Of a stretch of DNA of 64,000 nt, positions 1,291 to 49,501 are shown one piece after another. Source of the DNA: Minisyncoccota bacterium (lineage in GTDB: Bacteria; Patescibacteriota; Minisyncoccia; Phycocordibacterales; PALSA-1337); NCBI GenBank assembly GCA_028713005.1, contig JAQTPC010000001.1:33414-97413 (forward strand), read 5' to 3'. The notes beneath the pieces were generated by a model that saw only the letters and a list, made by a program, of their open reading frames with translations, was not told the DNA's origin and did no database searches. The position numbers and the translations under genes were made by a program. The number at the start of each line of letters is the position of its first letter. Position 1 is the first letter of the stretch.

Positions 1291-1728
1291 TTATTGATTA
1301 TTTTGTAATTTACTCAGTATCCGTGTCAGTTCGATCTGTTCTTCATCTGATAAGACAGAGGCTCGTTGATTGAATGCTTCATAAATCGCTGAGCGGTTCT
1401 TCTCAAATGTTTTCTTGCCTTGAGTAGTGAGTTCTATACGTGTGACTCGACGGTCATCTACATCTTCGTAGCGAGTGACGTCTTTGCTCTCAACGAGACG
1501 ATCGATGATGGCTGTCACTGCAGGGGAGGATATGCCAAGCTCGTCCGCGATATATTTCATCGAAGGATTTTTTTGCTCATACGCAATAGTCATGGTCTTC
1601 ATTTCAAGAAAAGAACATGCGGGGGCCACTGATCGCATTGTCTTGTACATTGAACGAGTGAGTGACACCAGCAATGAAGCAATGTCTGTTGTGCTTGATG
1701 CGCGTTTCGATTTTATGGCTGTAGACAT
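1291..1728 (-). CDS. MarR-family transcriptional regulator
   Basis: 145 aa with a winged-HTH MarR signature (…ADELGISSPAVTAIIDRLVESKDVTRYEDVDDRRVTRIELTTQGKK…). Sits immediately upstream of the efflux adaptor gene. Confidence 0.8.
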   Translation of the reverse strand: MSTAIKSKRASSTTDIASLLVSLTRSMYKTMRSVAPACSFLEMKTMTIAYEQKNPSMKYIADELGISSPAVTAIIDRLVESKDVTRYEDVDDRRVTRIELTTQGKKTFEKNRSAIYEAFNQRASVLSDEEQIELTRILSKLQNNQ

Positions 1729-1796: not shown

Positions 1797-1826
1797 CAGG
1801 TCCGACCTAGTTCTAGGTCGGACCTG
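1797..1826. repeat. Family-1 palindromic element caggtccgacctag-tt-ctaggtcggacctg
   Basis: Perfect 14-bp inverted repeat with a 2-nt centre. The same unit recurs at 5584-5667, 10347-10379 and 14793-14880. Confidence 0.8.
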
Positions 1827-1829
1827 TAA

Positions 1830-2348
1830 CTACAGACGGTACATCGGACGAAAATAGAGCAGGATTATATTTGCAATGCCAAAAACAAGTGAGAGTAGCC
1901 ACGTACCTATACTCACGTTACTAGAGATAACTAGAGCGAATGCTATTACACATAAAATAACGCCGGCTGAATCAATCTTTATCTTTTTTATAAGTAGTTG
2001 TGGGTAAGATATCTTTCCCCAGAGTAAAACGTATTTTGTAACCGCAAGAATAAAAAGACCCGTGACAGTAAGCATGAAAACGAATGGATTATTAAAGTTA
2101 AAAGCAAGAAATAGATACAAGATTACTAAAATAATATCGACAGAATCTTGTAGAAAGTTATGTGCACCCGCGATTGTCGTGAAAAGCCTCATTGAATAGT
2201 ATGTATTGAGTGTAATCGAAGCGTAAAAAATAATAAGAGGCAGAGCAGTTAAAAAATCACTCACAGAAAAGATCAACCCAACAATTCCAGCCAAACTGAG
2301 TAGTACGGTTACACCAACTGTCTTTATGTGTGGGCTAATTTTATTCAT
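1830..2348 (-). CDS. polytopic membrane protein, function unknown (adjacent to a glycosyltransferase pair)
   Basis: 172 aa, about five hydrophobic helices and no recognisable catalytic motif. Confidence 0.4.
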   Translation of the reverse strand: MNKISPHIKTVGVTVLLSLAGIVGLIFSVSDFLTALPLIIFYASITLNTYYSMRLFTTIAGAHNFLQDSVDIILVILYLFLAFNFNNPFVFMLTVTGLFILAVTKYVLLWGKISYPQLLIKKIKIDSAGVILCVIAFALVISSNVSIGTWLLSLVFGIANIILLYFRPMYRL

Positions 2349-2352
2349 AGTA

Positions 2353-3087
2353 CTATTTGTTCGTTCGAGACAATTTACGAATATCGGTTGATTTTTTGGT
2401 GAACGGTCGTTTAAAAAGTATTGGCCATAAAAAATTGAGCGCGTACGTGATGTTTGTTTTGATCAATCCCTCTTCACTAAATCGACGGCTCGAGGAATGA
2501 ATAAAGAAACTCATATCAAAAACCACTTTACCGTGTTTGCTCAAACGTCGTGCTATGTCTGTATCCTCACCATAAAAATCAATGCTCTGATCAAAGCCGC
2601 CCATGGCGAGTAGTGCATCTTTGCGAGCGACAAAATTGCCGCCGAGTACCATATAACCAACAATGCGGTATGTAAAAGGTGCAGTTAGCCACCACACTAA
2701 ATGCATGACATTATTTTTCCATTTGATACCGTCATGATAACGGTAAGGACCACTAAGACAAACAGTATTGGGTTGCTCGTTAAATATCTTTTCTACTTTT
2801 GATACCCAATGAGGTGGTAAAAGGGTATCTGCATCGATATAAGCTATGATATCTCCTGTGGATGCTTCGAGGCCACACTGTCGGGCTCTGGTCAGACCCT
2901 TCTTTGATTCATGTACAACTTTTACTCCGGAAACACTCAGTGCGTATTCTCTTGTTTTATCGGTACTCGCATTGTCTACAACAATGATTTCATGAAATTT
3001 TCCATCTGAATGTTTGATGGCAGATTCAAGACATTTCTTGATACATAGCTCTTCATTATATGCAGGTATGATGAGTGAGATTTTCAT
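2353..3087 (-). CDS. family-2 glycosyltransferase
   Basis: N-terminal LIIPAYNEE…VVDNASTDKT…DADT motifs characteristic of the GT-A fold GT2. Confidence 0.8.
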   Translation of the reverse strand: MKISLIIPAYNEELCIKKCLESAIKHSDGKFHEIIVVDNASTDKTREYALSVSGVKVVHESKKGLTRARQCGLEASTGDIIAYIDADTLLPPHWVSKVEKIFNEQPNTVCLSGPYRYHDGIKWKNNVMHLVWWLTAPFTYRIVGYMVLGGNFVARKDALLAMGGFDQSIDFYGEDTDIARRLSKHGKVVFDMSFFIHSSSRRFSEEGLIKTNITYALNFLWPILFKRPFTKKSTDIRKLSRTNK

Positions 3088-3091
3088 GTAA

Positions 3092-3832
3092 TTATTTGGC
3101 CTGATCAGATGTTTTTTCCCACCATCGTTCCCAGTTTTTTGCTTTTGCAGTACCGAAAACCATCAGCCAAAAGCTATTCACCATCCAAATTGATAGTAAC
3201 TTCGGCCAACCAAGGGCATGTGCACGACGTCCGCTATGTATAACAACCAATTCGGAATCGTATAATGTTCGACCAATTTTAGATAAACGATGAAAGAGGT
3301 CAGCATCTTCACGGGTGACGAGATCCTCGCGAAATCCGCGTATTTTTTCAAAAGCTTCTCGAGTAACCATTTGAAATTTGCCTGCTGCTTCGCCAGTACG
3401 AAGAATATTATTCTTAATAAAATGTGTGCTATTAAATATAAAATACATTAGCCGGTCGCCCCACGTGCGTGTTTCAGGGTATACGTTGAGTTTGGCGGTC
3501 AATCCAACAAGATTAGGTATAGACCTAAAATCATCAAGTGCACAGGTGAAGAATGCATCAGGATTCTCGATCAAACAACTACTGTCGATGAATACCAAAA
3601 AATCTCCCTGAGCAATTTTTGCTCCTGCATTTCTATTTGCTGCTATCGTCGTGTGCTTTTCACTTGGCACGAGCACATTTTTTGTATACTTTCGAGCAAT
3701 AGAAACTGTATTATCAATACTTTTATCGTCAGTTACAATTATCTCGTGAGGAATCTTCAACAATGAAAGATTTTCTAAGGTTTTTCCCAGATATTTTTCT
3801 TCATTATATGTAGGTATGATAATTGAAATCAT
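3092..3832 (-). CDS. family-2 glycosyltransferase
   Basis: IIIPTYNEEKYL…VTDDKSIDNT…FIDSS motifs. Tandem with the preceding GT2, separated by a 4-nt gap. Confidence 0.8.
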   Translation of the reverse strand: MISIIIPTYNEEKYLGKTLENLSLLKIPHEIIVTDDKSIDNTVSIARKYTKNVLVPSEKHTTIAANRNAGAKIAQGDFLVFIDSSCLIENPDAFFTCALDDFRSIPNLVGLTAKLNVYPETRTWGDRLMYFIFNSTHFIKNNILRTGEAAGKFQMVTREAFEKIRGFREDLVTREDADLFHRLSKIGRTLYDSELVVIHSGRRAHALGWPKLLSIWMVNSFWLMVFGTAKAKNWERWWEKTSDQAK

Positions 3833-3848
3833 GTTTATGAGATATAGC

Positions 3849-4484
3849 TTACAATGACTGTGCTTTGTTTTTTAATTTTTTGAAATATCGATAACCAATA
3901 TATGCGAGAACGAGCAAGCCGACTGTTAGTGTAATCTTCCCAAGAACATTATCGATGGTGACATATAGATTACTAAAGAAATATCCAGCGCCGAGGAGGA
4001 AACCAGTCCATATGAGTTGACCGATCATGTTTACCAGGATATATCTTCCAAAAGGAATTTTAACCATACCTGCTGTCATCAGAGTGACAATGGCAAAACC
4101 AAGTCCGTTTGATATTTTCGAAAGAAAGAGGACGACATGTTTATGCTTATGAAATAGTCGCGTCATACGCTCTACGCCAGCCTCAGTGATACTGAAACGA
4201 TGTCCATGCTTTCCGATAAATGAATGACCGTACCTACGGCCAATGTAATACCAGATCACATCACCTACGAGATCGCCAATCATAAGTGCGATGTATATAG
4301 GCCAGAAGAAAAAGAAACCGAGACGGAGCAGAACACCGAGAATAAGAGATATCCATGGACCTTCGGCACATGCAATCACTGCAACGGCAATATAGACGAG
4401 ATAATCATGAGTCACACCGAAACCAATAATCCAGTTTGCTATGTCGGGTAGGGACTGATTCATGTGTAATTCAGATTGTACCAC
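3849..4484 (-). CDS. DedA/VTT-family membrane protein
   Basis: …GDLVGDVIWYYIGRRYG… motif and multi-TM profile of the DedA/SNARE-associated family. The start could instead be the internal Met at 4463. Confidence 0.6.
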   Translation of the reverse strand: MVQSELHMNQSLPDIANWIIGFGVTHDYLVYIAVAVIACAEGPWISLILGVLLRLGFFFFWPIYIALMIGDLVGDVIWYYIGRRYGHSFIGKHGHRFSITEAGVERMTRLFHKHKHVVLFLSKISNGLGFAIVTLMTAGMVKIPFGRYILVNMIGQLIWTGFLLGAGYFFSNLYVTIDNVLGKITLTVGLLVLAYIGYRYFKKLKNKAQSL

Positions 4485-4516
4485 GATTTTATGCCCATTT
4501 ATGTTATATTGTTTTT

Positions 4517-5587
4517 ATGTATAAAAAACTCCTTAAGCCGATTTTATTCCGTTTTGACCCAGAAACGGTGCACGACTTCTTTACGTGGACAGGAGAATTG
4601 CTCGGTAGGTCCGCTTTAACACGTTTTGTGGTAGCAAAGGTGTACGGTTACACTGGAAAAAATATTTCAAAAACAGTTGATGGTGTCACCTATAAAACAC
4701 CAATTCTTCTTTCTGCAGGCTTTGACTACAATGGCCGACTTGCGCAGATTTTGCCTCATATTAGTTTTGGTGGAGAAGAGGTGGGCTCAGTCACGGCGAG
4801 ACCATGTGAGGGAAATCCAAAGCCTCGTTTGACTCGATTGCCTCAGTCAAAGAGTATTATTGTGAACAAAGGATTGAGGAATGAGGGAGTCGATAAAGTA
4901 ATTGAGCGCTTAAAACAGAGAATTCCGAGATTTAATAACCAAGTAACAATAACCAATGATCAAAAAAAGGTAGATTTTGTAGTCGGTATCTCTATCGCAC
5001 GAACGAATGATGAGAAATCAGCTGCGTCAGTGCAGGCAGGCACTGATGATTACGTATATTCGTTTAAGAGGCTCAATGAGGAAAATGTCGGTGACTATTA
5101 TACGATCAATATATCGTGCCCGAATGCTTTTGGTGGCGAAACGTTTGCTAAACCTGAGCTGTTGGGCCAGCTTTTGCCTGCACTCATGAAGATTCCGTGC
5201 ACAAAGCCTGTATACGTGAAGATGCCCATCAATATTCCGTGGGATCATTTTGCACAACTCCTCAAAATAATTGATGAAAATAAATTGCACGGTGTTGTCA
5301 TTGGTAACTTAAATAAAGACTATAGCTGGCTTGATGTTCGTGAAGAGGCTCCAAAAGAATACGTTGGTGGACTTTCTGGTAAGCCTTGCACCCACCCTTC
5401 GACTGACTTAATCAGAAAAACAAAAGAAGTATATGGAGATCGATTCACCATCATCGGTGTAGGAGGCATCATGTCTCCAGAGACTGCTCGGGAGAAGTTT
5501 GAAGCTGGTGCAGATCTGATACAGCTCATCACGGGTATGATCTATGAGGGGCCAGGGTTGGTAAGGAAAATTGCGAAAAGTTGCTAG
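4517..5587 (+). CDS. pyrD: dihydroorotate dehydrogenase (class 2-like)
   Basis: FDPETVH, GFDYNG, GSVTARPCEGNPKPRLTRL and NKGLRNEGV motifs of PyrD. The ORF-track start at 4436 overlaps the divergent dedA-like gene, so I placed the start at MYKKLL (4517). Confidence 0.8.
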   Translation: MYKKLLKPILFRFDPETVHDFFTWTGELLGRSALTRFVVAKVYGYTGKNISKTVDGVTYKTPILLSAGFDYNGRLAQILPHISFGGEEVGSVTARPCEGNPKPRLTRLPQSKSIIVNKGLRNEGVDKVIERLKQRIPRFNNQVTITNDQKKVDFVVGISIARTNDEKSAASVQAGTDDYVYSFKRLNEENVGDYYTINISCPNAFGGETFAKPELLGQLLPALMKIPCTKPVYVKMPINIPWDHFAQLLKIIDENKLHGVVIGNLNKDYSWLDVREEAPKEYVGGLSGKPCTHPSTDLIRKTKEVYGDRFTIIGVGGIMSPETAREKFEAGADLIQLITGMIYEGPGLVRKIAKSC

Positions 5588-5667
5588 GTCCGACCTGTAA
5601 GCAACGTGTTTACTTAACGAAATGATGATTTTTTTAACAGGTCCGACCTGGTTCTAGGTCGGACCTG
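5584..5667. repeat. Family-1 composite element (single arm + 36-nt spacer + full palindrome)
   Basis: ctaggtccgacctg at 5584-5597, then a spacer, then caggtccgacctggttctaggtcggacctg at 5638-5667. The spacer is the reverse complement of the spacer in the 14793-14880 copy. Confidence 0.8.
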
Positions 5668-5675
5668 TTAAAAAA

Positions 5676-5700
5676 GCGACCACGTGGTGAAGGTGGTCGC
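5676..5700 (-). terminator. intrinsic terminator of the 5725-6225 gene
   Basis: gcgaccac-N9-gtggtcgc hairpin, followed on the minus strand by a T-run. Confidence 0.6.
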
Positions 5701-5724
5701 GATTGTGTGTTGATGTATGAAAAC

Positions 5725-6225
5725 TTAGTGATGATTGCACTGATGATGATCAGGGCGACGATAACGCTCGCTTCGTTGTTGTGTGCGCAAGAGGCGTTTC
5801 TCAAGCTTAAGACCGTTGCGGTGAGCGTGGCCCTGGAGCTTACGCTTGAAACGATGGAGCGACGTCTTGAGATAGGTTGTTATTTTCCGGAACAGTTCAC
5901 CCATAGTTTGGCCGTGGTAGATTTTGATGGAGTGAATTTGTTTTCCTCTCCATGAGGCCAAAGAATCCCTGTCAGCAAACTGCGTGTAGATAGCCATCTT
6001 GGTGCTCTCGACTCGCAGGGGCACAAACTCCTCTTTACCACCTTCTTCGAGAGTCACCAGAAAGGTGATTCCAGACTTGCGCTTCATGCGAGCCGCGGCT
6101 GCTGCGAACCCTTTGAAGGGAATATTGAGTTTCTCACTCATATTCTTGATGTGGTTCAACATGTTTTCAACCACGTATATGGGCTCCATGCGCGGATCGA
6201 TAACTTCATCTAATGTGATTTCCAT
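5725..6225 (-). CDS. hypothetical protein (basic low-complexity C-terminus)
   Basis: 166-aa ORF with a terminator downstream. No recognisable domain, and the 3' third is low complexity. Confidence 0.4.
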   Translation of the reverse strand: MEITLDEVIDPRMEPIYVVENMLNHIKNMSEKLNIPFKGFAAAAARMKRKSGITFLVTLEEGGKEEFVPLRVESTKMAIYTQFADRDSLASWRGKQIHSIKIYHGQTMGELFRKITTYLKTSLHRFKRKLQGHAHRNGLKLEKRLLRTQQRSERYRRPDHHQCNHH

Positions 6226-6375
6226 TTCGAACTCCTTTTGTTAGTTGTTTGCAGAACTTACTCCGAATTTGATTATTCTCCTTTATTGTTGAAATGTAAA
6301 GGGTGGCTGTGCATATCATTATGATATACTAGAGCACGTAATCCTTACCCATTAAATTCATTCACTTTTTATCAC

Positions 6376-7407
6376 ATGAAAAAAATCCGCGTCGCTATCA
6401 ATGGTTTCGGTCGCATCGGTCGTGCTTTCGCCAAAATCGCTAAAAACCGCGATGAGATCGAGCTCGTCGCTATCAATGATCTTGGTAGTATCAAAAATTT
6501 TGCGTATCTCCTCAAATACGACACAGCGTACGGTGTCAGTCCATTCGATGTCACTGCTGATGAGACAAAAGGCATACTCAGTATCGATGGTCATGATGTT
6601 CAGTACATCTCTGAAAAGGATCCAACCAAGCTTCCATGGAAATCAATGGATATTGATGTAGTTATCGAGTGTACAGGCCTCTTCACCTCTGCTGAAAAGG
6701 CTCAAGCTCATATCAATGCTGGCGCAAAGCGCGTAGTTGTTTCAGCTCCTATAAAGGATGAGGCAGGTTCAGCGTACAAGGGTGAGACTATTCTGATGGC
6801 AATGAATGAAAACAAGCTTGAGACATGCACGGTATCATCAAATGCCTCATGTACGACAAACGCTTCAAGTCCACTTATCGCTATTCTCGATGAAACTATT
6901 GGTATTCACAAAGCTATTTTGAATACGGTTCATGCGTATACTGCTTCACAAGCTCTCGTTGATGGTCCAAGCAAGAAAGACCTCCGTGAAGGCCGTGCGG
7001 CAGCTCAGAACATCGTTCCTTCTTCGACCGGTGCGGCCATCGCTGTCACCAAGGTTGCCACACAGCTTGAAAATAAGTTTGACGGTATCTCTATCCGTGT
7101 ACCAGTCGTTACCGGATCTATTGTGGACGTGACATTTGTTGCAAAGAGAAAGACGTCAGCTGAGGAAGTAAACTCAATTCTCAAGAAAGCAGCTGCGGAA
7201 GCACGCTGGAATGGTATTTTTGCGGTGACTGAAGAACCTCTTGTATCACATGACATTGTCGGCAACCGTCATGCATCTATAGCTGACCTTGAGATGACAC
7301 GTGTTGTTGATGGAGATCTCGTGAAGGTGCTGGCGTGGTATGACAATGAGACAGGGTATACGTATACGTTGGTTGATCATGTGATCAAGGCAGGGAGGTT
7401 GGTTTAA
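6376..7407 (+). CDS. gap: glyceraldehyde-3-phosphate dehydrogenase
   Basis: INGFGRIGR Rossmann motif and catalytic SNASCTTN. Confidence 0.92.
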   Translation: MKKIRVAINGFGRIGRAFAKIAKNRDEIELVAINDLGSIKNFAYLLKYDTAYGVSPFDVTADETKGILSIDGHDVQYISEKDPTKLPWKSMDIDVVIECTGLFTSAEKAQAHINAGAKRVVVSAPIKDEAGSAYKGETILMAMNENKLETCTVSSNASCTTNASSPLIAILDETIGIHKAILNTVHAYTASQALVDGPSKKDLREGRAAAQNIVPSSTGAAIAVTKVATQLENKFDGISIRVPVVTGSIVDVTFVAKRKTSAEEVNSILKKAAAEARWNGIFAVTEEPLVSHDIVGNRHASIADLEMTRVVDGDLVKVLAWYDNETGYTYTLVDHVIKAGRLV

Positions 7408-8603: not shown

Positions 8604-9161
8604 ATGCACACGATGACCACTTCAAACTACAATTTTGTCACCCAAGATGAGTTCAATGCCCACTCATTTCATGTTGATCAGAAATTCAACGATCTGACTG
8701 AGATCATGCTGGGTGAATTTGATAAGATGCATGAGAGATTTGAGCGAAATGACACCAAATTTACTTCTGTTGAAATTCAATTTAAGGCAATTGATAAAAG
8801 ATTTGTTGGTATCGAAGGTCACTTTACAGGTATTGATGCGCGACTCGATTCGATTGATACGAAGATTGGTACTTTAGAAAAAGATATGAAGGATGTGAAG
8901 CTTCACATGAAAAATACAAATAAGAGACTTACTTCTCTTGAGGATAAGTTTGAAGTTCTGGACCAGAAAATGGATACCGTCTTCGATAAACTCAGTAACC
9001 ACGATGAGAAATTTGATCAGATGATGTCTAGATTGAGCAAGCATGACGAGAAATTTAATCAAATAATGCTAGAACTGAGTAGTCACGATAAGAAATTCAG
9101 TCAAATAATGACAAAGCTCGATACACACAGCAAGCAATTAGATGCTATAATCGCAAAATGA
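8604..9161 (+). CDS. coiled-coil protein with three tandem 14-aa repeats
   Basis: Heptad-rich sequence. The C-terminus carries 3 x 42-nt repeats (8997-9122) encoding xHDEKF(D/N/S)Q(M/I)M..L(S/D). Confidence 0.5.
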   Translation: MHTMTTSNYNFVTQDEFNAHSFHVDQKFNDLTEIMLGEFDKMHERFERNDTKFTSVEIQFKAIDKRFVGIEGHFTGIDARLDSIDTKIGTLEKDMKDVKLHMKNTNKRLTSLEDKFEVLDQKMDTVFDKLSNHDEKFDQMMSRLSKHDEKFNQIMLELSSHDKKFSQIMTKLDTHSKQLDAIIAK

Positions 9162-9619
9162 AAACTCACCCTATTATTTTGGCCGCTGATCATGCTGGCT
9201 ACAAGCTCAAAGAAGAGATAAAGGTCTTTTTACAGGCAAAAGGATTCAAGATTGACGATATGGGCGCACATGCCTTTGTTGAAGACGATGATTATCCATA
9301 CTTCATGACTCAAGCAGCGCTTCGTATCGCTCAGGATTCCAGCGGTTTTGCTCGTGCCATCATCTTTGGCAAGTCTGGCCAAGGTGAGGCTATGGTCGCT
9401 AACCGTTTTCCGGGTGTTCGCGCAGCAGTGTACTACGGCGGCCCTCACGATATTTTGAAGCTCTCTCGTGAACATAACAATGCCAACATTCTCTCTATCG
9501 GTGCCGGCTTTGTCAGTGAGACAGAGGCGCAAGAGGCTATCATCCAGTGGTTAGAAACCCCATTTTCACATGAAGAAAAGCACCAGCGTCGTATCATCGA
9601 GATCGATTCGATAGAATAG
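9158..9619 (+). CDS. rpiB: ribose-5-phosphate isomerase B
   Basis: RpiB/LacAB-family signature MKTHPIILAADHAGYKLKEE… The start overlaps the previous stop (ATGA). Confidence 0.85.
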   Translation: MKTHPIILAADHAGYKLKEEIKVFLQAKGFKIDDMGAHAFVEDDDYPYFMTQAALRIAQDSSGFARAIIFGKSGQGEAMVANRFPGVRAAVYYGGPHDILKLSREHNNANILSIGAGFVSETEAQEAIIQWLETPFSHEEKHQRRIIEIDSIE

Positions 9620-9646
9620 TTCGTCGATCCATGCTACATTTTTGAT

Positions 9647-10324
9647 ATGAATAAAATAGAAATCATCCCCGCTATCCTCGTCGACGATTTTGAGGAGCTC
9701 CAAGACAAGATCGAGCTTATCAAGCTGAATACCAAACGTATACAGATCGATATTTGTGATGGTCAATTCACTCCGAGTGCCACGTGGCCATATAGAAAAC
9801 CTGACAATAACTTCGAGATGCTCATTCGTGAAGATCAGTCACTGCCTGGCTGGGAAAAGATCGACTACGAGTTCGACCTTATGCTCAACAAACCAGAAGA
9901 AGTCGTTGATGATTGGGTATCTGTCGGCGCAACTCGTATTGTTTTGCACGCTGAGTCAAAAGGAGACATAAAAGCTGCGATTGAAAAATTGCAAGGTAGA
10001 GTAGAAATTGGTTTGGCTTTGAATATTGATACACCAATCTCAATGATCAATGACGCAATAACCAATAACCAAATTCAATTCGTCCAGCTCATGGGTATTG
10101 ATCATATCGGTTTTCAAGGACAAGATTTTGATGCAAAAGTTTTGGAAAAGATACAAGAAGTCAAAAAGCTCTATCCGGATATACCCGTTTCTATCGATGG
10201 GGGAGTTAGTCTTGAGACAGCACAAGATCTCATTGATGCAGGCGCAGATAGGTTGGTCATCGGTTCAGCTATTTTGAATGCAGAGAGTCCGCTCAATGCT
10301 CTCGAGGAGTTTCAGAGTTTATAA
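9647..10324 (+). CDS. rpe: ribulose-phosphate 3-epimerase
   Basis: …IQIDICDGQFTPSATWP… TIM-barrel RPE motifs. Confidence 0.85.
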   Translation: MNKIEIIPAILVDDFEELQDKIELIKLNTKRIQIDICDGQFTPSATWPYRKPDNNFEMLIREDQSLPGWEKIDYEFDLMLNKPEEVVDDWVSVGATRIVLHAESKGDIKAAIEKLQGRVEIGLALNIDTPISMINDAITNNQIQFVQLMGIDHIGFQGQDFDAKVLEKIQEVKKLYPDIPVSIDGGVSLETAQDLIDAGADRLVIGSAILNAESPLNALEEFQSL

Positions 10325-10346
10325 TTTCATCAGTAATCTAAGATAC

Positions 10347-10379
10347 CCACACCTGCTAGGTCGGACCTAGCAGGTGTGG
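10347..10379. repeat. Family-1 variant palindrome
   Basis: ccacacctg-ctaggtcggacctag-caggtgtgg. The same core unit flanked by a different inverted pair, downstream of rpe. Confidence 0.7.
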
Positions 10380-10405
10380 AGTATTTCGTATGATATACTA
10401 TTCCT

Positions 10406-11254
10406 ATGTCATTGACCGATGAAAAAGTAAAGCTCCTCGAAGCAAAAGCCCTCGACATCCGTCGTTCGCTCATCGAATCTCTCATTGAAGCAAAATCAGG
10501 TCATACCGCTGGTCCGCTCGATATGGCCGACATCTTCACCTATCTCTATTTCCACGCGCTCAAGCACGATCCAAAGAAACCCGCGTGGCCATATCGCGAC
10601 CGTCTCATCCTCTCAAACGGCCACATCTGTCCGGTGCTCTACTCAACCATGGCGCATGCAGGGTATTTTCCTGTATCTGAACTCAAAACACTCCGCAAGT
10701 TTGGCTCACGTCTCCAAGGGCACCCACATCGTGAGTGGCTACCTATGCTCGAAAACTCTTCTGGTCCGCTCGGTTCAGGACTTTCCCAAGCTGTCGGCAT
10801 GGCAATGGCTGACAAGATCGACAACGGCAAGACATCAGGAAAATATTTCTACTGCTTGCTCGGTGATGGTGAGCTTGATGAAGGAAACAATTGGGAAGCC
10901 ATTATGTTCGCGGCGCGAGAAAAGCTTCATAATGTGATTGCTATAGTTGATCGTAACAATATCCAGATAGATGGGTTCACCGAGGATGTCATGCCACTCA
11001 ATCCGCTCACTGACAAATGGAAAGCGTTTAATTGGCATGTCATCGAGGTTGATGGACACAATTTCCGTGATATCGACCGTGCGGTTGGTGAGGCACAGGC
11101 TGTCTTCGACAAACCATCAGTCATCATCGCAAATACGATTGCCTCAAAGGGTATTCCGGCTTTTGAACGTAAGTTTGAATGGCATGGTAAGCCACCGGGT
11201 ACGCCAGAGGAGATAAAGACGGCTAGGGAAGCGTTGGGGATTAATAAAAATTAA
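10406..11254 (+). CDS. transketolase, N-terminal (TPP-binding) subunit
   Basis: GHTAGPLDMADIF, LSNGH and GDGELDEGNNWEA motifs. A split transketolase. Confidence 0.88.
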   Translation: MSLTDEKVKLLEAKALDIRRSLIESLIEAKSGHTAGPLDMADIFTYLYFHALKHDPKKPAWPYRDRLILSNGHICPVLYSTMAHAGYFPVSELKTLRKFGSRLQGHPHREWLPMLENSSGPLGSGLSQAVGMAMADKIDNGKTSGKYFYCLLGDGELDEGNNWEAIMFAAREKLHNVIAIVDRNNIQIDGFTEDVMPLNPLTDKWKAFNWHVIEVDGHNFRDIDRAVGEAQAVFDKPSVIIANTIASKGIPAFERKFEWHGKPPGTPEEIKTAREALGINKN

Positions 11255-11255
11255 T

Positions 11256-11474
11256 ATGAATTTCATTGCGATTCCATTTATTACATTAAGTTTACTTCTG
11301 CCAATTATAATTTTGATTGCGCTTATTTATGCAACAATTGTGCTCAGAAAACAGAAAAGATACTTTCTATTAATATTTTTGTATATTTTAACTATATTCA
11401 TAATTTATTCAGCTGGTGATAAGATATTTTATACTTTTATTGAATTAATTCATGGACAAAATATTTACCCTTAA
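11256..11474 (+). CDS. small hydrophobic protein (72 aa) in an AT-rich insert between the transketolase halves
   Basis: Two predicted TM helices in a very AT-rich stretch. The gene may be spurious. Confidence 0.3.
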   Translation: MNFIAIPFITLSLLLPIIILIALIYATIVLRKQKRYFLLIFLYILTIFIIYSAGDKIFYTFIELIHGQNIYP

Positions 11475-11492
11475 TAAATAATAAAAACTAAC

Positions 11493-11744
11493 ATGAGAAC
11501 AATCGAAACAATCTTAAAACTATCTTTCCTTGGACTTTCTATTTATTTCTTGAGTACACAAGCAGTGTTGTCTCCTTTATTTAACTTACTTCTTCTCGTA
11601 AGTATCGTTCTTGGCATGGTCCTCATGTTCAATCATGAAGCCAGTTACCATTTCAAGCAGACAAAGAAGGATTTGAATATCCGTAAAATAGAGGGTGGGG
11701 TACTCATATTCTTTGCTGCGATCGTAAGTAGTTTGGGATTGTAA
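11493..11744 (+). CDS. small hydrophobic protein (83 aa) in the same AT-rich insert
   Basis: Two or three predicted TM helices in AT-rich sequence. Confidence 0.3.
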   Translation: MRTIETILKLSFLGLSIYFLSTQAVLSPLFNLLLLVSIVLGMVLMFNHEASYHFKQTKKDLNIRKIEGGVLIFFAAIVSSLGL

Positions 11745-11753
11745 TTTATTTTA

Positions 11754-12767
11754 ATGCTTAACCCTCACCAAAAACTTAACCCGCACCTCTTCGACAAGGA
11801 CGTCGAACAAGTTCCTATACGCAAAGGATTTGGTGAGGGACTCCTCCAAGCAGCCGAAGCAGACAAGCGCATCGTCGGCCTCTGTGCAGACCTGACTGAG
11901 TCGACGCACATGCTCGCTTTCAAGCAAAAGTTCCCAGAACGATTCGTAGAGATGGGCATCGCTGAACAAAATCTCGCCGCATTAGCTTCAGGTATGGCCG
12001 CTATGGGCAAAGTTCCATTCATCACCTCATATGCGATGTTTAGTCCTGGTCGTAATTGGGAACAAATACGTACGACCATCGCGTATAATAATAGACCGGT
12101 AAAAATCGCCGGTTCACATGCTGGTATATCAGTCGGCCCAGATGGAGGCACACACCAAGCTATCGAAGATATCGCCATCACTCGTGTCATACCTCGTATG
12201 GTCGTCATCGCACCCTGTGACTCTATCGAAGCGCGCAAGGCAACTATCGCTTCAAGCAAGACAGACTCGCCAACCTATATCCGCCTTGCACGTGAGAAAA
12301 CTCCAGTCATAACTACTGACGAGACGCCGTTTGAGATAGGGAAAGCTCAAGTGGTATTTGACTCACGTGTCTCAAGTGATTCACATAAAAGAGATCTCGA
12401 TGTAGGTATCATCGCTACTGGTGCTCTCCTCTACAAAGCACTCAAAGCTGCTCGTAAACTCAATCAAGAAGGGAAAAATGTGGCAGTGGTTAACCTTTCA
12501 ACGATCAAGCCACTCGATGAAGATACGATCATCAAAGTCGCTCATGACGCTGGTGCTATCGTCACCGTTGAAGAGCATCAGATCGCGGGAGGTATGGGTT
12601 CAGTTGTAGCTGAATGCCTCGCGAAGCATTTCCCAGTACCGATCGAGTTTGTCGGAGTAAAAGATCTGTTCGGCCAATCAGGTACTCCTGATGAGCTCAT
12701 TGCGCACTATGGTATGGATGAAAAAGATATTCATCAAGCCGTATTGAAAGTGCTGTTGAGAAAGTAA
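11754..12767 (+). CDS. transketolase, C-terminal (pyrimidine-binding + C-terminal domain) subunit
   Basis: …FVEMGIAEQNLAALASGMA…SHAGISVGPDGGTHQAIEDIA… motifs. Confidence 0.88.
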   Translation: MLNPHQKLNPHLFDKDVEQVPIRKGFGEGLLQAAEADKRIVGLCADLTESTHMLAFKQKFPERFVEMGIAEQNLAALASGMAAMGKVPFITSYAMFSPGRNWEQIRTTIAYNNRPVKIAGSHAGISVGPDGGTHQAIEDIAITRVIPRMVVIAPCDSIEARKATIASSKTDSPTYIRLAREKTPVITTDETPFEIGKAQVVFDSRVSSDSHKRDLDVGIIATGALLYKALKAARKLNQEGKNVAVVNLSTIKPLDEDTIIKVAHDAGAIVTVEEHQIAGGMGSVVAECLAKHFPVPIEFVGVKDLFGQSGTPDELIAHYGMDEKDIHQAVLKVLLRK

Positions 12768-12789
12768 ATCCCCGAGGGTAGGCCTCGGG

Positions 12790-14282: not shown

Positions 14283-14747
14283 ATGAAAACAACTGAAAGA
14301 ATACTCGTTCGGGTTATGCCCGAAGCAATGTCGCGTCTCGTGTGGATCATGCGTCAGTTGCTTTCAACTCACGCAAAAATACTTCACAAGCGCGTAGTGA
14401 ACCTCGACACTGACACAGTCAATGCACTTCATCCAACCGCAAACGGTCAGGTGAAGGCAGAGATTCTGCAGCGTCTCAAGGGTCAGCAGATCGGCCTGTT
14501 TCTTCTTGAAGGTGAAAATGTGGTTGAACACATCACACGACTGGTTGGAACAGATAATAAGCAGTATTTGTGGACGATAAACACATTGCAGGGTCAATTA
14601 CTCGTGGAGTTCTACCTCCGTATCAATCGCTCATACGCGGATAGCGTCTACCACTACCACTTCATCGAGTGTGTAACCGACCCTGACGAAATCAAGCGTC
14701 AATACGCTCTTCTGACAGATAAATCACTCTACTCAAAAACGTTTTGA
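14283..14747 (+). CDS. hypothetical protein (154 aa)
   Basis: Strong Shine-Dalgarno (aaaggag) 8 nt upstream; no recognisable domain. Confidence 0.5.
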   Translation: MKTTERILVRVMPEAMSRLVWIMRQLLSTHAKILHKRVVNLDTDTVNALHPTANGQVKAEILQRLKGQQIGLFLLEGENVVEHITRLVGTDNKQYLWTINTLQGQLLVEFYLRINRSYADSVYHYHFIECVTDPDEIKRQYALLTDKSLYSKTF

Positions 14748-14755
14748 TCACATTC

Positions 14756-14788
14756 AGCGCATCCTTCACTGGTATGCGCTGTTTTTTT
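14756..14788 (+). terminator. intrinsic terminator
   Basis: agcgcat-N11-atgcgct, then gtttttttg. Confidence 0.65.
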
Positions 14789-14792
14789 GATT

Positions 14793-14880
14793 CGACAGGT
14801 CCGACCTAGTTCTAGGTCGGACCTGTCGGGAAAACTATCATTTTGTTAAGTAAACTCGTTGCTTACAGGTCGGACCTGGC
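14793..14880. repeat. Family-1 composite element (full palindrome + spacer + single arm), inverted relative to the 5584-5667 copy
   Basis: cgacaggtccgacctagttctaggtcggacctgtcg at 14793-14828, then a spacer similar to the reverse complement of 5600-5640, then acaggtcggacctgg at 14865-14879. Confidence 0.8.
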
Positions 14881-14926
14881 AAAACATCCTTTAAATACCT
14901 CTACTTTTGTGTTATAAAGTAAGCCT

Positions 14927-17002
14927 ATGTCCGCCAAACCCCTCTTTCAACTCGCGACACCATATAAACCAGCAGGTGACCAACCAAAGGCTATTTCAGG
15001 GCTCGTAGAAGGGCTCAAGAAGGGTTTTACCAAGCAAACCTTGCTCGGAGTCACAGGCTCAGGTAAGACCTTTACCGCGGCTAATGTCATCACTCAGTTC
15101 AACAAGCCGACCCTTGTCATTGCTCATAATAAAACCCTTGCCGCACAGCTTGCCCAGGAGTATCGTGAATTTTTCCCGCACAATGCAGTGCACTATTTCG
15201 TCTCATACTATGACTACTATCAGCCAGAGGCATATATTCCATCGAGTGATACATACATCGAAAAAGAAGCCATGATCAATGAAGAGATCGAGCGTCTCCG
15301 TCACGCATCGACGCAAGCACTTCTTACGCGTAAGGATGTAATTATAGTTGCGTCAGTTTCTTGTATATACGGTTTGGGTAGTCCTGAAGAATATGAAAAG
15401 GTGAATCTCAAACTCAAAGTCGGCATGGAACTATCGCGCGCAGAGCTCATCCGCAAATTGATCGACATTCACTTTGAACGCACACTGGCTGATCTGAAGT
15501 CTGGTCAATTCCGCGCAACAGGCAATATGCTCGAAGTCATGCCCGTCAACGAAAAGACTATTTATCGTATCGAGTACGACACCAACGACAAAGGTGAGGC
15601 GGTCATCTCACTCATCACCGAGCTTGATCCCGTCAGTCGTTCCGTGCGTGCCAGTCATGAGGCTATCTTCATTTTCCCAGCAAAGCACTTCATCTCATCT
15701 GATGAGCAGAGTGCCAAAGCGTACAAGACCATCCAAGCTGAGCTCGTCGATAGACTCAAAGTGCTCGAAAAGGGAGGCAAGATGCTCGAAGCAGAACGTC
15801 TCAAGCGTCGCGTCAAGTATGATCTCTCTATGATCAAGGAGATCGGGTATACGAACGGCATTGAGAACTATTCACGTCACTTCAGTGGGCACATGCCCGG
15901 TGAAGCGCCTGATACACTCCTCGCATACTTTCCAAAAGACAAAGATGGCAATCCAGACTTCCTGACCATCATCGATGAGTCGCATGTCACCATCCCACAG
16001 TTGAACGGTATGTATGCCGGCGATGCCTCACGCAAAGAGACGCTGATCGAGCACGGTTTCCGTTTGCCGTCTGCCAAGGACAATAGACCGCTCAAATTCC
16101 CGGAGTTCCTCGAACGTGTGGGCCCCATGATCTATACCTCAGCGACGCCAGGTAAATATGAAGTAGCCGAATCACAAAATGTCGTCGAGCAAGTCATCCG
16201 TCCAACTGGCCTCATTGATCCGGTGGTTGATATCAAGCCAATCAGGGAAAATGCGTCGAGTGGCTACAAGGGTCAAATATTTGATTTCATTGAGGAAGCA
16301 GAGAAGACTATCAAGAGCGGTTTCCGTGTCATCGCCACCACTCTGACCAAAAAGATGGCTGAGGATCTGTCTGAATTCCTCAAGGAAAAGAAGATCAAAG
16401 CGGCATATCTCCACAGCGATATCAAAACCATTGAGCGCATCAATATCCTCACTGACTTCCGCAGAGGGAAGTACGATATCGTCGTGGGCGTCAACCTCCT
16501 CCGTGAAGGACTGGATCTCCCTGAAGTGTCCCTCATCGGCATCCTCGATGCTGACAAAGAAGGCTTCCTCCGCAGTGAGACCTCTCTCATCCAGACTATC
16601 GGCCGTGCGGCGCGCAACTCTGCTGGTCGCGTCATCCTCTATGCCGACACCATGACCGACTCCATGAAGAATGCCATCCGCGAAACTGATCGCCGTCGCG
16701 CCATCCAGGTCGCATACAATACCGAGCATGGCATCACCCCAACCACCATCATCAAGGCTATCCATGACATCACCGACCAGTTGCGCACTGAGCATGATAA
16801 GGCGGTGAATGCACTTGTGAAGATCGATGAGGAATTGGCGCGCACTGACCCCAAGAAGCTCTACCGCATGAAGGAGGAAGCTATGGCCGAGGCTGTGCAA
16901 GCGCTCGACTTTGAGACTGCGGCACTCATACGCGATGAGCTTTTCAAGTTGGAGGAAAAGATGGGTGTGCCGGGGAGGAAGGGTAATAAATTATATGAAT
17001 AA
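14927..17002 (+). CDS. uvrB: excinuclease ABC subunit B
   Basis: Walker A GVTGSGKTFT, the UvrB beta-hairpin region, helicase motifs, and a C-terminal UVR domain (ALDFETAALIRDELFKLEE). Confidence 0.92.
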   Translation: MSAKPLFQLATPYKPAGDQPKAISGLVEGLKKGFTKQTLLGVTGSGKTFTAANVITQFNKPTLVIAHNKTLAAQLAQEYREFFPHNAVHYFVSYYDYYQPEAYIPSSDTYIEKEAMINEEIERLRHASTQALLTRKDVIIVASVSCIYGLGSPEEYEKVNLKLKVGMELSRAELIRKLIDIHFERTLADLKSGQFRATGNMLEVMPVNEKTIYRIEYDTNDKGEAVISLITELDPVSRSVRASHEAIFIFPAKHFISSDEQSAKAYKTIQAELVDRLKVLEKGGKMLEAERLKRRVKYDLSMIKEIGYTNGIENYSRHFSGHMPGEAPDTLLAYFPKDKDGNPDFLTIIDESHVTIPQLNGMYAGDASRKETLIEHGFRLPSAKDNRPLKFPEFLERVGPMIYTSATPGKYEVAESQNVVEQVIRPTGLIDPVVDIKPIRENASSGYKGQIFDFIEEAEKTIKSGFRVIATTLTKKMAEDLSEFLKEKKIKAAYLHSDIKTIERINILTDFRRGKYDIVVGVNLLREGLDLPEVSLIGILDADKEGFLRSETSLIQTIGRAARNSAGRVILYADTMTDSMKNAIRETDRRRAIQVAYNTEHGITPTTIIKAIHDITDQLRTEHDKAVNALVKIDEELARTDPKKLYRMKEEAMAEAVQALDFETAALIRDELFKLEEKMGVPGRKGNKLYE

Positions 17003-24569: not shown

Positions 24570-24599
24570 TATATTTATGCGTAGGGTAGACCTACGCAA

Positions 24600-25624: not shown

Positions 25625-25659
25625 TATCGATGCAAATTACAAATGATCGCGAATGATGC
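25625..25659. repeat. Family-3 33-bp direct repeat, copy 1 (upstream of ctpA)
   Basis: atcgatgcaaattacaaatgatcgcgaatga(t/c)gc also occurs at 27020-27053. Clustered attcgcat/atgcgaat half-sites follow it. Confidence 0.75.
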
Positions 25660-25776
25660 AAATCAAAAAACTGGGCAATGGTTTTTATTCGCATCATTCG
25701 CATGTGTCTTTGCGCTATTCGCATCGCATTTTGTTATTTGATATGAGATAATAGCTCAACAACTAATCAATATATT

Positions 25777-27019: not shown

Positions 27020-27053
27020 ATCGATGCAAATTACAAATGATCGCGAATGACGC
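27020..27053. repeat. Family-3 33-bp direct repeat, copy 2 (in the rplI leader)
   Basis: Differs from copy 1 by 1 nt. Confidence 0.75.
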
Positions 27054-27069
27054 GAATAAACCCAAAATC

Positions 27070-28404: not shown

Positions 28405-28442
28405 ATAATAAAGATCCTTTCGGAGACCATTAAAGCAACTAC

Positions 28443-28500
28443 ACAGAAAAATCGCAAGGGCAGGCTTGCGATTTTTCTGTTTACTGATTACCGTTTACTG
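28443..28500. repeat. Family-2 long hairpin element (downstream of rpmA)
   Basis: cagaaaaatcgcaag-N6-cttgcgatttttctg, followed by tttactgattaccgtttactg. A near-copy lies at 33172-33242. Confidence 0.75.
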
Positions 28501-33160: not shown

Positions 33161-33171
33161 TTACTAATTGT

Positions 33172-33242
33172 AAACGGTAAACAGTAATTAGTAAACAGAA
33201 AATCGCAAGGTTCGCTTGCGATTTTCTGTTTACTGTTTACCG
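33172..33242. repeat. Family-2 long hairpin element, extended palindrome
   Basis: aaacggtaaacag…cagaaaatcgcaag-N5-cttgcgattttctg-tttactgtttaccg. Confidence 0.75.
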
Positions 33243-33256
33243 ATCTCTATCTACTA

Positions 33257-33763
33257 CTACCCCTTGATCTGAGCTCCTGCAGCTGATGAAGCGTGGAAAA
33301 CCTTCATAATGATATTTCCGTTTGCATCCTTGAGAGGAAGATCAAGCGTTGCATCAAACTTTTTATCACCATTATCAGAATGCATCATAGCGTAATATGT
33401 CACTCCATCAACCATTGGCTGTGTGAGGGTGATCTTGCCTGGACTAATACCAGCTACAAAATACATCTGTCCAATAATCTTACCTGGTGTACCTGCATTG
33501 TCTGCATGGATAACTACCCAACCTGGATTCTCAAACTGTGCTGAGTTGAGATAAACGACATTACCTGGATACTGATCACCCATAACAACACGATTGAGTG
33601 CGCCTGGTGTGTTTGAAGTATCATCTGTTGCGATAGCGTTTTGATCTGAAGGCAAAGAAGCACTCTTGCCACCAAATACCCAGATACCGATGATAATAAG
33701 GACAATGATAACCACTACTGTAACTACCCACTGCCATGTCTTGATACCGCTTTGAGGTTGCAT
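33257..33763 (-). CDS. hypothetical membrane-anchored exported protein (168 aa)
   Basis: N-terminal TM helix and a Gly/Asn-rich extracytoplasmic domain. Confidence 0.45.
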   Translation of the reverse strand: MQPQSGIKTWQWVVTVVVIIVLIIIGIWVFGGKSASLPSDQNAIATDDTSNTPGALNRVVMGDQYPGNVVYLNSAQFENPGWVVIHADNAGTPGKIIGQMYFVAGISPGKITLTQPMVDGVTYYAMMHSDNGDKKFDATLDLPLKDANGNIIMKVFHASSAAGAQIKG

Positions 33764-49000: not shown

Positions 49001-49501
49001 ATAACCTGTTATATTTAAGCCGCCCATATGGAATGACAGGTAACCAATATCAGTCGCAGTATTATTGGTAACTGAAACGTGTATATCAATACTTGGACCA
49101 TTTTGCACAAACTGCAGTGATGCGTTTCCTTGGCTATAGTTGAATGTAAGTGTGTTGGTCTGAGAATCAAATACAGTTCCTTGATCTGAACCAAGAGACA
49201 TGCTGCCGCCACTAGTATTTTGTATTTCTCGAATATTGATACATGTATTTTGTCCCGGGTCTTTAAAATCACCTCCATTATATGTGAGACTTGTAAACAT
49301 ATATCCACAACTTACTGGACCAATAGTAAATGATGGACTATTTAGTGCATACGTACTCTGAATATTCGCAAGAAGACTTGTGGTGAACGTGATTGCTATA
49401 AGAATGAATGTAACCCAGTGTGTTACCTCAGACAATGGATGCTCATGCCAAAGTCGATAGAGTGGAAATTTTCTTGATAAGTGTGAGTGTAAAAAGTCCA
49501 T
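46082..49501 (-). CDS. giant secreted protein, family B
   Basis: 1139 aa. Order: conserved N-terminal LYRLWHEHPLSEVTHW followed by a TM helix; beta-sandwich region; about 450-aa conserved TIM-barrel-like central domain (…VILWDLEGQRWPHCTSYIGDPRYAEDPRFAPEWDT…WGVTIFYIDSTDWIAGTD…); Fn3-like domains; Gly8 linker; divergent InlB-B repeat; two PG-binding repeats; tail …KPVVVPSINFNF. Confidence 0.7.
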   Translation of the reverse strand: MDFLHSHLSRKFPLYRLWHEHPLSEVTHWVTFILIAITFTTSLLANIQSTYALNSPSFTIGPVSCGYMFTSLTYNGGDFKDPGQNTCINIREIQNTSGGSMSLGSDQGTVFDSQTNTLTFNYSQGNASLQFVQNGPSIDIHVSVTNNTATDIGYLSFHMGGLNITGYTGDSLPTSQAGDYPNIWGFNTTFGELFLVNTNKVTGDCGSPTPWCLLSTSIGSVPHGTTVTATNAIKFYPLGTSLLEAVPEVISAWTAQYPMQNFWSDRRPIGTDFLSSPPCPIVNGCASDFSKNMNGWFSNGIDPGSVDVTTPEGRQAWATQMLARIDADIANVKEVNGQGVILWDLEGQRWPHCTSYIGDPRYAEDPRFAPEWDTQVNYVYSSTTNPSANYSSTSMNVIDAAFHKILDNGLRAGITIRPDQIVYDPGDANLGCGGGGLYGIYGVRPSQQYVTDTAARIQLLKDKINYAKSRWGVTIFYIDSTDWIAGTDMIQVHQDIPDVLLMPENTTLLEYTVGIPFKYTRLQGFYGGPGTIGNIGDIYPEAAVAVNSNNEVTPELVDHYWELVNAVRHGSVTLFNSWFNTAEKQYIKMIYASSSVPVVAPTISTPTATGITASDVTFNASVLYTGGSFINQRGFKYGTDTAYASSTDFSGTLDASLNNTDAAVTATINDLSCGTTYHYMFYARNFDGATGSYVQRTASSSDQTFNTTDCVSVVPPTVSVSTIGTITQTGADLNANVDTTGGSSVTELGFRYGATVDYSATSSTSGHFNTGAFSKTLTGLTCGTTYHYQAYAINFSGTGVTSDGTFTTSACSTSGGNPVVYSGGGGGGGGTYYSLTIQTTGTGHGTTTSNPSGILCSSKCTSAFYAGSKITLTAIPDKYSHLTSWSGCASFATSTCTVTLSSSMSVFAKFDAGSANTVIQNISAPVTTTIVPPTTGSIPTAYLNLEFGSRSTAVLTLQKYLIAGGYLSSVYATGYYGQLTANAVAQYRASRSNVSATGSVTTTSSGSALTSYLFLGTTGQQVKTLQKILNAKGYTIATSGNGSVGNESTYFGPSTQVALQKFQCAVLSVCSGSPLTTGYGATGPRTRAALGGTTAPVTQTNTVTPASVPTPTKTPTTATVPVKTTTVKPVVVPSINFNF

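Follow-up and report, generated by a model that had tools for sequence, protein, structure and literature searches.

REP/REPIN-like hairpin repeats in a Minisyncoccota genome are a probable variant of a Patescibacteria repeat family linked to a RAYT-like Y1 transposase

The stretch of DNA analyzed here (the window) comprises 64,000 nucleotides from a Minisyncoccota bacterium (assembly GCA_028713005.1, contig JAQTPC010000001.1, positions 33,414–97,413), in which short hairpin repeats built on the near-palindrome AGGTC[C/G]GACCT occupy four intergenic sites. These sites probably hold non-autonomous elements similar to repetitive extragenic palindromes (REPs) and to REPINs, mobilized by a Y1 enzyme resembling the REP-associated tyrosine transposases (RAYTs). 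Members of the same repeat family flank a gene for a transposase of the REP-associated type, which gives the repeats the look of mobile DNA and not of dedicated terminators. The hairpins of the window are one variant of a large, apparently undescribed family of ultra-small Patescibacteria, i.e., the candidate phyla radiation (CPR).

The near-palindrome occurs nine times at the four sites, against 0.14 occurrences expected. A search with GGTCCGACCTAG, allowing at most one mismatch, gave nine matches in the window, all located between positions 1799 and 14823, and none of 100 shuffled sequences gave nine. The unit AGGTC-S-GACCT is a palindrome in itself and is used in two ways. In doublets, two units form the arms of a longer hairpin, and their order is invariably centre C followed by centre G. 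Elsewhere (10347–10379, 5580–5605, and 14860–14882), a single unit forms the tip of the hairpin, not an arm, and the stems are unrelated in sequence. Three sites contain doublet hairpins, and the fourth is a lone unit tipping a 33-bp palindrome. An inverted-repeat search returned perfect arms of 14 nt (1797–1810/1813–1826), 17 nt (14793–14809/14812–14828), and 16 nt (10347–10362/10364–10379). The initial annotation of this DNA had placed the repeats at coordinates that all hold, and had described three of the hairpins as perfect. This is correct for the doublet at 1797–1826 (units 1798–1808, centre C, and 1815–1825, centre G; 14-bp stem) and for that at 14793–14828 (units 14797–14807 and 14814–14824; 17-bp stem), but the doublet at 5638–5667 (units 5639–5649 and 5656–5666) carries one G-T mismatch in its stem, which A/T flanks at 5630–5637 and 5668–5675 lengthen. 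The supposed variant at 10347–10379 is present and is a perfect palindrome; its unit (10358–10368), however, lies at the hairpin tip rather than in an arm.

Two of the doublets are parts of larger composites. Composite A (5581–5668), assigned to the minus strand so that it aligns with copy B, is made up of a single-unit hairpin (5580–5605, stem GTTGCT/AGCAAC around unit 5586–5596), a 32-nt spacer, and the doublet hairpin, and composite B (14795–14882, plus strand) of the doublet hairpin, a spacer, and a single-unit hairpin (14860–14882, stem TTGC/GCAA around unit 14867–14877). As had been proposed, the composites are inverted copies about 9 kb apart: each is 88 nt long, they are 86% complementary, and 9126 nt lie between them. 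The open reading frames (ORFs) adjoining the two composites show no homology to each other, indicating that only the element of about 88 nt was duplicated. In form, the window elements are singlets, doublets of head-to-head units similar to REPINs, and a three-unit composite resembling a bacterial interspersed mosaic element (BIME). When folded as single-stranded DNA, the four sites reach −14.9 kcal/mol (1797–1826, z −6.7 versus shuffles), −27.2 kcal/mol (composite A, z −9.7), −19.8 kcal/mol (10347–10379, z −8.8), and −27.6 kcal/mol (composite B, z −7.0). In an independent Logan assembly of SRR22315508, a contig (L208) is 100% identical to window positions 1798–6428 and ends exactly within the 1797–1826 doublet, which is how assemblers stop at multi-copy repeats. 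A covariance-model scan of the whole window against Rfam gave no family at the gathering score, and the doublet pattern had no match in viral contigs.

The pattern AGGTCCGACCT-N2-12-AGGTCGGACCT was scanned over species-representative genomes, one per species, and found at no fewer than 120 loci; counts below refer to the 120 loci listed, which extend up to 8 kb each. Seventy-nine of them are titled as named CPR lineages, 29 as 'bacterium', 10 as Gammaproteobacteria, and 2 carry other labels. The named lineages among the matches listed are Saccharibacteria, Kaiser-, Taylor-, Moran-, Nealson-, Yonath-, Giovannoni-, Woese-, Gottesman-, Collier-, Chisholm-, and Levyibacteria, and WWE3, so that the spread among these matches includes Saccharibacteria, many Parcubacteria and Microgenomates groups, and WWE3. 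The titles 'uncultured Gammaproteobacteria' (L019, L022, L047, L054, L060, L065, L090, L094, L097, and L102) are probably wrong; L019 has two adjacent genes in common with L070, a metagenome-assembled genome (MAG) of Patescibacteria.

Across the listed loci, the spacer between paired units is 2–12 nt long, and the flanks are site-specific yet complementary. Isolated units form the tips of variable stems. Among 273 units, the flanking positions show a weak bias (−1, R 85%; +1, Y 85%), and all other flank positions carry less than 0.2 bit. The density of units is low: 104 of the 120 loci contain only the pair by which they were selected, with about one extra unit per 28 kb. In one MAG (bin-405), a palindromic element of 78 nt that is based on the core is present at least 13 times. 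About one-third of the copies in related genomes (38–54 of 122) lie inside ORFs, in all three phases and with the frame intact. The hosts include GatA, with the copy at a common site in four genomes, a class I aminoacyl-tRNA synthetase, with a common site in three, UvrB, with two different sites, an AddA/AddB-like (UvrD-type) helicase-nuclease, glycosyltransferases, and TPR proteins. Intragenic REPs, including some in repair genes, are known from other species (PMC3733652). The 60 intergenic copies that were classified lie between divergent (19), tandem (29), or convergent (12) genes. Low density, intragenic copies, and this mixture of gene orientations do not fit a dedicated terminator, operator, or uptake sequence. 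A literature search with the literal sequence returned only unrelated primers and FadR/LldR operators, and a search for palindromes, uptake sequences, or RAYT/REP in Patescibacteria, of incomplete coverage, found no description.

All-against-all comparison of the ORFs adjacent to units revealed a sole recurrent neighbor, a protein of 200–270 (about 230) amino acids. It matches Pfam Y1_Tnp (IS200-like) with 28–38 bits (cut-off 23), and its best NCBIfam match is 'REP-associated tyrosine transposase' (NF047646, E 2.5e-11). The NHFH (HUH) motif is invariant, and a Tyr is conserved in YIHLNP. The AlphaFold model of the transposase (pLDDT 81.7, pTM 0.83) has as its best fold match in the PDB 4ER8_A (E 1.7e-5, probability 1.0), which is the E. 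coli REP-associated tyrosine transposase with a bound REP hairpin, followed by the TnpA proteins of IS608 and ISDra2. The family comprises at least 7,536 protein clusters at E ≤ 1e-10 and these, where named, are just 'transposase' in Patescibacteria, Pacebacteria/Paceibacterota, and Nomurabacteria. The gene is present in 10 of the 120 listed loci, from 10 different MAGs, and units adjoin it on both sides wherever both flanks are present; the remaining 110 motif loci contain no transposase gene within the locus (up to 8 kb). A homologous upstream neighbor is common to 13 of 68 loci, which suggests a fixed chromosomal place of the gene. Single units are also seen inside the transposase gene itself, in a variable loop (...QGRT...), at a similar position in L080 (784), L066 (1714), and L045 (3027), and as a doublet in L027 (3566–3599).

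The linkage was also approached from the protein side, using 80 metagenome loci picked by protein similarity alone. In nearly all of these, the gene has its own, lineage-specific palindrome on each side. The upstream and downstream flanks share a word of at least 9 nt in 67 of 69 loci, and 54 of the 67 include AGG-N5-CCT, which makes a stem-AGG-N5-CCT-stem hairpin the common denominator. The window element is the variant of this hairpin in which N5 is TCSGA. Identical N5 sequences on both sides were found in 50 of 76 loci, inverted in 30 and direct in 20. The upstream hairpin ends at a median of 34 nt ahead of the start codon, and the downstream hairpin starts at a median of 22 nt past the stop codon. 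Tip variants can occur together: in L210, AGGTCSGACCT and AGGTTSAACCT stand side by side (136–146 and 3542–3552), showing that one genome can hold mixed hairpin types. Two further hairpins that follow the tip rule, with GTAGG or GTAGA as N5 (ccccgAGGGTAGGCCTcggg and tgcgtAGGGTAGACCTacgca), are located in the window at 12771–12789 and 24578–24598 and may represent a second variant.

A separate observation in these loci (L121–L200, together with L010, L030, L060, and L066) concerns exact DnaA-box 9-mers (TTATCCACA), which occur 26 times in 396 kb, against about 3 expected. Fourteen of the 26 lie near the transposase gene at most 40 nt, and mostly 0–12 nt, from an AGG-N5-CCT hairpin foot; examples are found in L124 (4800–5800), L143, and L171. 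No exact DnaA-box 9-mer lies beside the window copies. In L009 (1620–1800) and L104 (468–605), the transposase gene stands beside mraZ and the spacer contains repeated TTATCCCCA/TTATCCAC, resembling an array of MraZ boxes; such 9-mers may therefore not always be DnaA boxes, and caution is advisable.

Comparison with relatives shows that copies come and go at orthologous sites. The spacer ahead of rpe contains a doublet in L111 and is empty in the window. Conversely, the spacer between rpe and tktN holds a hairpin in the window, is empty in L111, L201, L205, and L209, and contains different REP units in L210. L209 and L210 are 97.8% identical over 10 kb, with a stretch of about 45 nt replaced just past the rpe stop codon; at this rpe 3′ site, only L210 has AGGTCCGACCT beside AGGTTCAACCT, and L209 is without it. 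The relatives with the same gene order, L201, L205/L206, and L209, have 67–88% nucleotide identity to the window and no unit at any of its sites. L201 does carry a doublet at a different place, in the interval that separates a response regulator gene from uvrA. The borders of the two window composites show no target-site duplication. A fast-evolving ORF (5725–6225), whose nearest relative has 61% amino acid identity, lies next to composite A. The initial view of the repeats as mobile-looking, REP/MITE-like elements is supported by this turnover and by the tie of the motif family to a RAYT-like Y1 transposase elsewhere in Patescibacteria. The suggestion that the inverted composites could mediate inversion of the intervening 9 kb, on the other hand, found no evidence: the longest unbroken identity between them is 21 nt. 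The order from pyrD and gap to uvrB is kept in every relative that has the cluster, and none of them has the inverted pair.

By analogy with E. coli TnpA-REP and the TnpA enzymes of IS200/IS605, the transposase would bind the hairpin on single-stranded DNA, for example at replication forks. It would then cut and rejoin the strand, such that hairpins or groups of hairpins could be excised and copied to new sites without target duplications. The functional core would be a short hairpin tipped by AGG-N5-CCT, here with TC[C/G]GA as N5, whereas the sequence of the stem may vary. Sites just past stop codons and flexible protein loops would be those that tolerate insertion. The window copies would then be passengers, with the enzyme gene elsewhere in the same Candidatus Pacebacteria genome; that this genome encodes the enzyme, and that the enzyme acts on these hairpins, is what we infer from the family.

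Several observations weigh against mobilization of the window repeats by such an enzyme. All window copies are located in the first 15 kb, and the other 49 kb contain none. Searches of the 64 kb with tblastn and with profiles found no Y1/RAYT gene in the window, so that for this genome the link to the enzyme is one at family level. The match of the protein to NF047646 (33–44 bits) lies below the 80-bit equivalog cut-off, and the protein is thus a distant relative of RAYTs, not an equivalog, while a sequence-only PDB search with the transposase profile was marginal (E 0.11). No GTAG, GTGG, or CGTC tag is present at the hairpin foot in the 273 units. Finally, the TCSGA variant (AGGTCSGACCT) is present in only one of the 80 protein-selected loci (L191), and N5 variants recur on unrelated branches of a neighbor-joining tree of the proteins. 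Since N5 does not follow the transposase tree, a specific pairing of enzyme and tip is unsupported.

A wider proposal, tentative and on balance doubtful, is that these systems form an old, undescribed RAYT/REP branch across Patescibacteria, in which the enzyme reads the tip AGG-N5-CCT instead of a GTAG tag at the foot, regulates its own gene, and is coupled to replication, in which the elements colonize loops of essential proteins in otherwise extremely streamlined genomes, and which is kept for a benefit to the host and not as a parasite. The hairpin at a fixed distance of about 34 nt before the start codon suggests self-regulation of the transposase gene, and the frequent presence of a DnaA-box 9-mer by the hairpins suggests coupling to replication.

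The gene context of the window sites bears on the remaining explanations. The window genes identified comprise a MarR-family regulator gene (1291–1728, minus strand), two GT2 glycosyltransferases and a VTT-domain protein, pyrD (ending at 5587), gap (6376–7407), rpiB, rpe, and a split transketolase (tktN and tktC; 9158–12767 with rpiB and rpe), and uvrB (14927–17002). The composites had been said to flank a segment from gap through pentose phosphate genes and tkt to ndk; gap, rpiB, rpe, tktN, and tktC were recovered, but ndk was not among the window ORFs scanned. As originally stated for the repeats, all four sites lie just after stop codons, at a distance of 0–46 nt. The doublet at 1797–1826 is located 3 nt beyond the stop codon of ORF 1830–2348 (minus strand) and 69 nt upstream of the MarR-family gene. 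At composite A, the hairpin 5580–5605 itself supplies the last codon of pyrD and its stop codon TAG (5585–5587): the C-terminus reads ...KSC (TAG) in the window versus ...KSL (TAA) in L209, where the element is absent. The palindrome at 10347–10379 lies 23 nt past the rpe stop codon and 27 nt ahead of the tktN start codon. Composite B is inserted between the terminator of ORF 14283–14747 and a short uvrB leader; in relatives, only about 30–40 nt separate the T-run from the uvrB ATG. As a separate matter, uvrB (14927–17002) has 81–88% nucleotide identity to its counterparts in L201, L203, L205, and L207, against only 67–76% for neighboring genes, and occurs in two gene contexts: in one it follows the transketolase cluster, in the other dnaE/RNase HII. 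This combination of identity and context suggests transfer or unusual constraint.

These positions are what would be expected if the hairpins were primarily transcription terminators or mRNA 3′-end stability elements that share their sequence by chance, a role also considered for them in the initial annotation. Many copies at the 120 listed loci likewise lie 4–30 nt past a stop codon, T-runs behind the hairpins are slightly enriched (17% and 13% versus an 11% background), and E. coli REPs stabilize upstream mRNA (PMC3733652). Yet canonical terminator-like hairpins, which are not part of the elements, abut both composites: one at 5670–5700 (minus strand; GCGACCAC...GTGGTCGC followed by T6) serves ORF 5725–6225 (minus strand) next to composite A, and another at 14756–14788 (plus strand; CAGCGCAT...ATGCGCTG followed by T7) serves ORF 14283–14747 next to composite B. 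In a terminator scan, 10347–10379 was the only window copy flagged, and weakly so; the three doublets failed and have no T-run of their own. Moreover, terminator function would not require an exact 11-nt core common to CPR lineages, about one-third of the copies lie in frame within genes, 19 of the 60 classified intergenic copies lie between divergent genes, and the orthologous spacers of relatives have no hairpins. A primary role as terminators or stability elements is therefore unlikely, although 10347–10379 is terminator-like. Mobile repeats might affect mRNA 3′ ends as a by-product, for instance through a block to exonucleases or by limiting how far transcription reads into tktN or uvrB; their anatomy gives no indication of this.

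A comparably small chance applies to the idea that the repeats are minimal miniature inverted-repeat transposable elements (MITEs), i.e., back-to-back terminal inverted repeats of an insertion sequence (IS) of the DDE type, or that they are ends or derivatives (PATEs) of a multi-copy IS200/IS605 element instead of belonging to a domesticated RAYT. The inverted layout with centre C before centre G would suit such an origin, as would the amplification of longer palindromic elements in particular lineages, and the linked protein belongs to Pfam Y1_Tnp, with the TnpA proteins of IS608 and ISDra2 close in structure. The DDE version is opposed by the absence of a target-site duplication at the composites and of any recurrent DDE transposase beside units. 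Against the IS200 version, both the best profile match and the best fold match of the protein are RAYTs. The 10 gene-bearing listed loci come from as many MAGs, an upstream neighbor is conserved in 13 of 68 loci, and no TnpB-like partner was noted.

Much less probable is that a dimeric winged-helix regulator of the GntR/FadR or MarR type uses AGGTC-N-GACCT as its operator and that the sites define its regulon. The core is indeed a perfect dyad of the GGT-N3-ACC type known for FadR-like regulators, and papers on the FadR and LldR operators include GGTCCGACC; in the window, a MarR-family gene has one doublet 69 nt upstream of it, and composite B precedes uvrB. However, L209 and L211 retain the MarR gene with no unit in 9–20 kb, and the regions upstream of uvrB in four relatives have no unit. 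The spacing of paired units varies from 2 to 12 nt, copies lie in coding regions and between convergent genes, and the sole recurrent neighbor is a transposase, with no regulator recurring.

It is extremely unlikely that the core serves DNA uptake in natural competence, in the manner of the uptake sequences of Neisseria or Haemophilus, where inverted pairs after genes also occur: competence genes are common in Patescibacteria, and the motif is common to many lineages of one group with both intragenic copies and inverted pairs after genes, but its density is far too low (104 of 120 listed loci with the selecting pair only, about one extra unit per 28 kb; nine units in the 64-kb window, all within 13 kb, versus roughly one per kb expected throughout the genome for uptake sequences), many sister N5 variants exist in other genomes, and the motif is linked to a transposase gene.

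A superphylum-wide regulatory motif, a parS-like centromere, and a recombinase core site were considered as well and dropped, since the spacing varies, copies occur inside genes, N5 has many variants, and a transposase is linked to the motif; canonical parS occurs in the window at chance level only. The LexA motif of Patescibacteria is cited as a direct repeat and is therefore not this element.

The window also contains other repeats. An unrelated palindromic family on CTTGCGATTTT(T)CTGTTTAC is present at 28440–28483 and 33165–33259, in copies that are 90% complementary and 4.7 kb apart. A 41-nt direct repeat (ATCGATGCAAATTACAAATGATCGCGAATGA...) occurs at 25626–25666 and 27020–27060 with 93% identity at a distance of 1.4 kb, and one of its copies adjoins a 20-nt inverted repeat (25649–25701). 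Between 41300 and 64000, long diverged direct repeats of 72–84% identity (e.g., 47727–49470 versus 51635–53360, and 44949–45909 versus 62843–63803) suggest tandem duplication of large genes with internal repeats.

The window alone is of modest significance: it contains four passenger repeats, and no effect of these on the adjoining sugar-phosphate and repair genes is evident. To our knowledge, nearly all work on REP/RAYT systems concerns Proteobacteria, and there is continuing debate over whether the systems are domesticated or selfish. A large sister system in highly streamlined Patescibacteria of about 1 Mb would indicate that repeats of this kind endure even in genomes with little non-coding DNA, and the hairpin tip AGG-N5-CCT would offer a different recognition rule. 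Such a system would also explain why GatA, aminoacyl-tRNA synthetases, and UvrB of these organisms contain small inserted peptides such as ...RSDL...GRT..., and would provide a basis for renaming thousands of generic 'transposase' genes. In addition, the Logan contig that ends inside one element flags these repeats as a source of contig breaks in MAG assembly.

Among known systems, the repeats resemble most the REP/REPIN-RAYT systems of Proteobacteria, such as the E. coli REPs and BIMEs with YafM (PDB 4ER8) and the REPINs of Pseudomonas fluorescens (PMC5581495, PMC3733652, PMC6006769). As in those, the repeats are short hairpins found singly, as inverted doublets, or in mosaics; a Y1/HUH gene is bracketed by repeats; dispersed copies without the gene far outnumber the gene; target duplications are absent; and positions just past genes seem to be preferred, with some copies intragenic. 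Yet there are several differences. The shared feature of known REPs is a GTAG/GTGG or CGTC tag (PMC6006769, PMC3733652), whereas no such unpaired tag stands at the foot of these hairpins and the conserved part is the tip, AGG-N5-CCT. The Patescibacteria protein is about 80 residues longer at its C-terminus and scores below the NCBI cut-off for RAYTs. REPs have been described as species-specific (PMC6006769), but here one tip variant is spread over many deep lineages, about one-third of the copies are intragenic, and the hosts are Patescibacteria with genomes of about 1 Mb.

Elements of the IS200/IS605 group (IS608, ISDra2) share with the present system the enzyme superfamily, the recognition of terminal hairpins, the expected single-strand mechanism, and the lack of target duplications. 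Here, however, the two ends are not distinct: left and right flank have the same palindrome. No TnpB partner was noted, the loci seen show no sign of multiple gene copies, and some gene synteny is conserved. Intrinsic (Rho-independent) terminators are likewise G+C-rich hairpins just past stop codons, and 10347–10379 passes a simple terminator scan, but most copies lack a T-run, the sequence is conserved and not the structure alone, and canonical terminators stand alongside. The Rickettsia palindromic elements (RPEs), finally, are in-frame inserts of about 100–150 bp in housekeeping genes, where they contribute tolerated short peptide segments, and we know of no dedicated transposase for them. 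In-frame palindromic inserts in housekeeping genes are found here too, although the present elements measure 11–35 bp, and a gene linked to them encodes a Y1 transposase.

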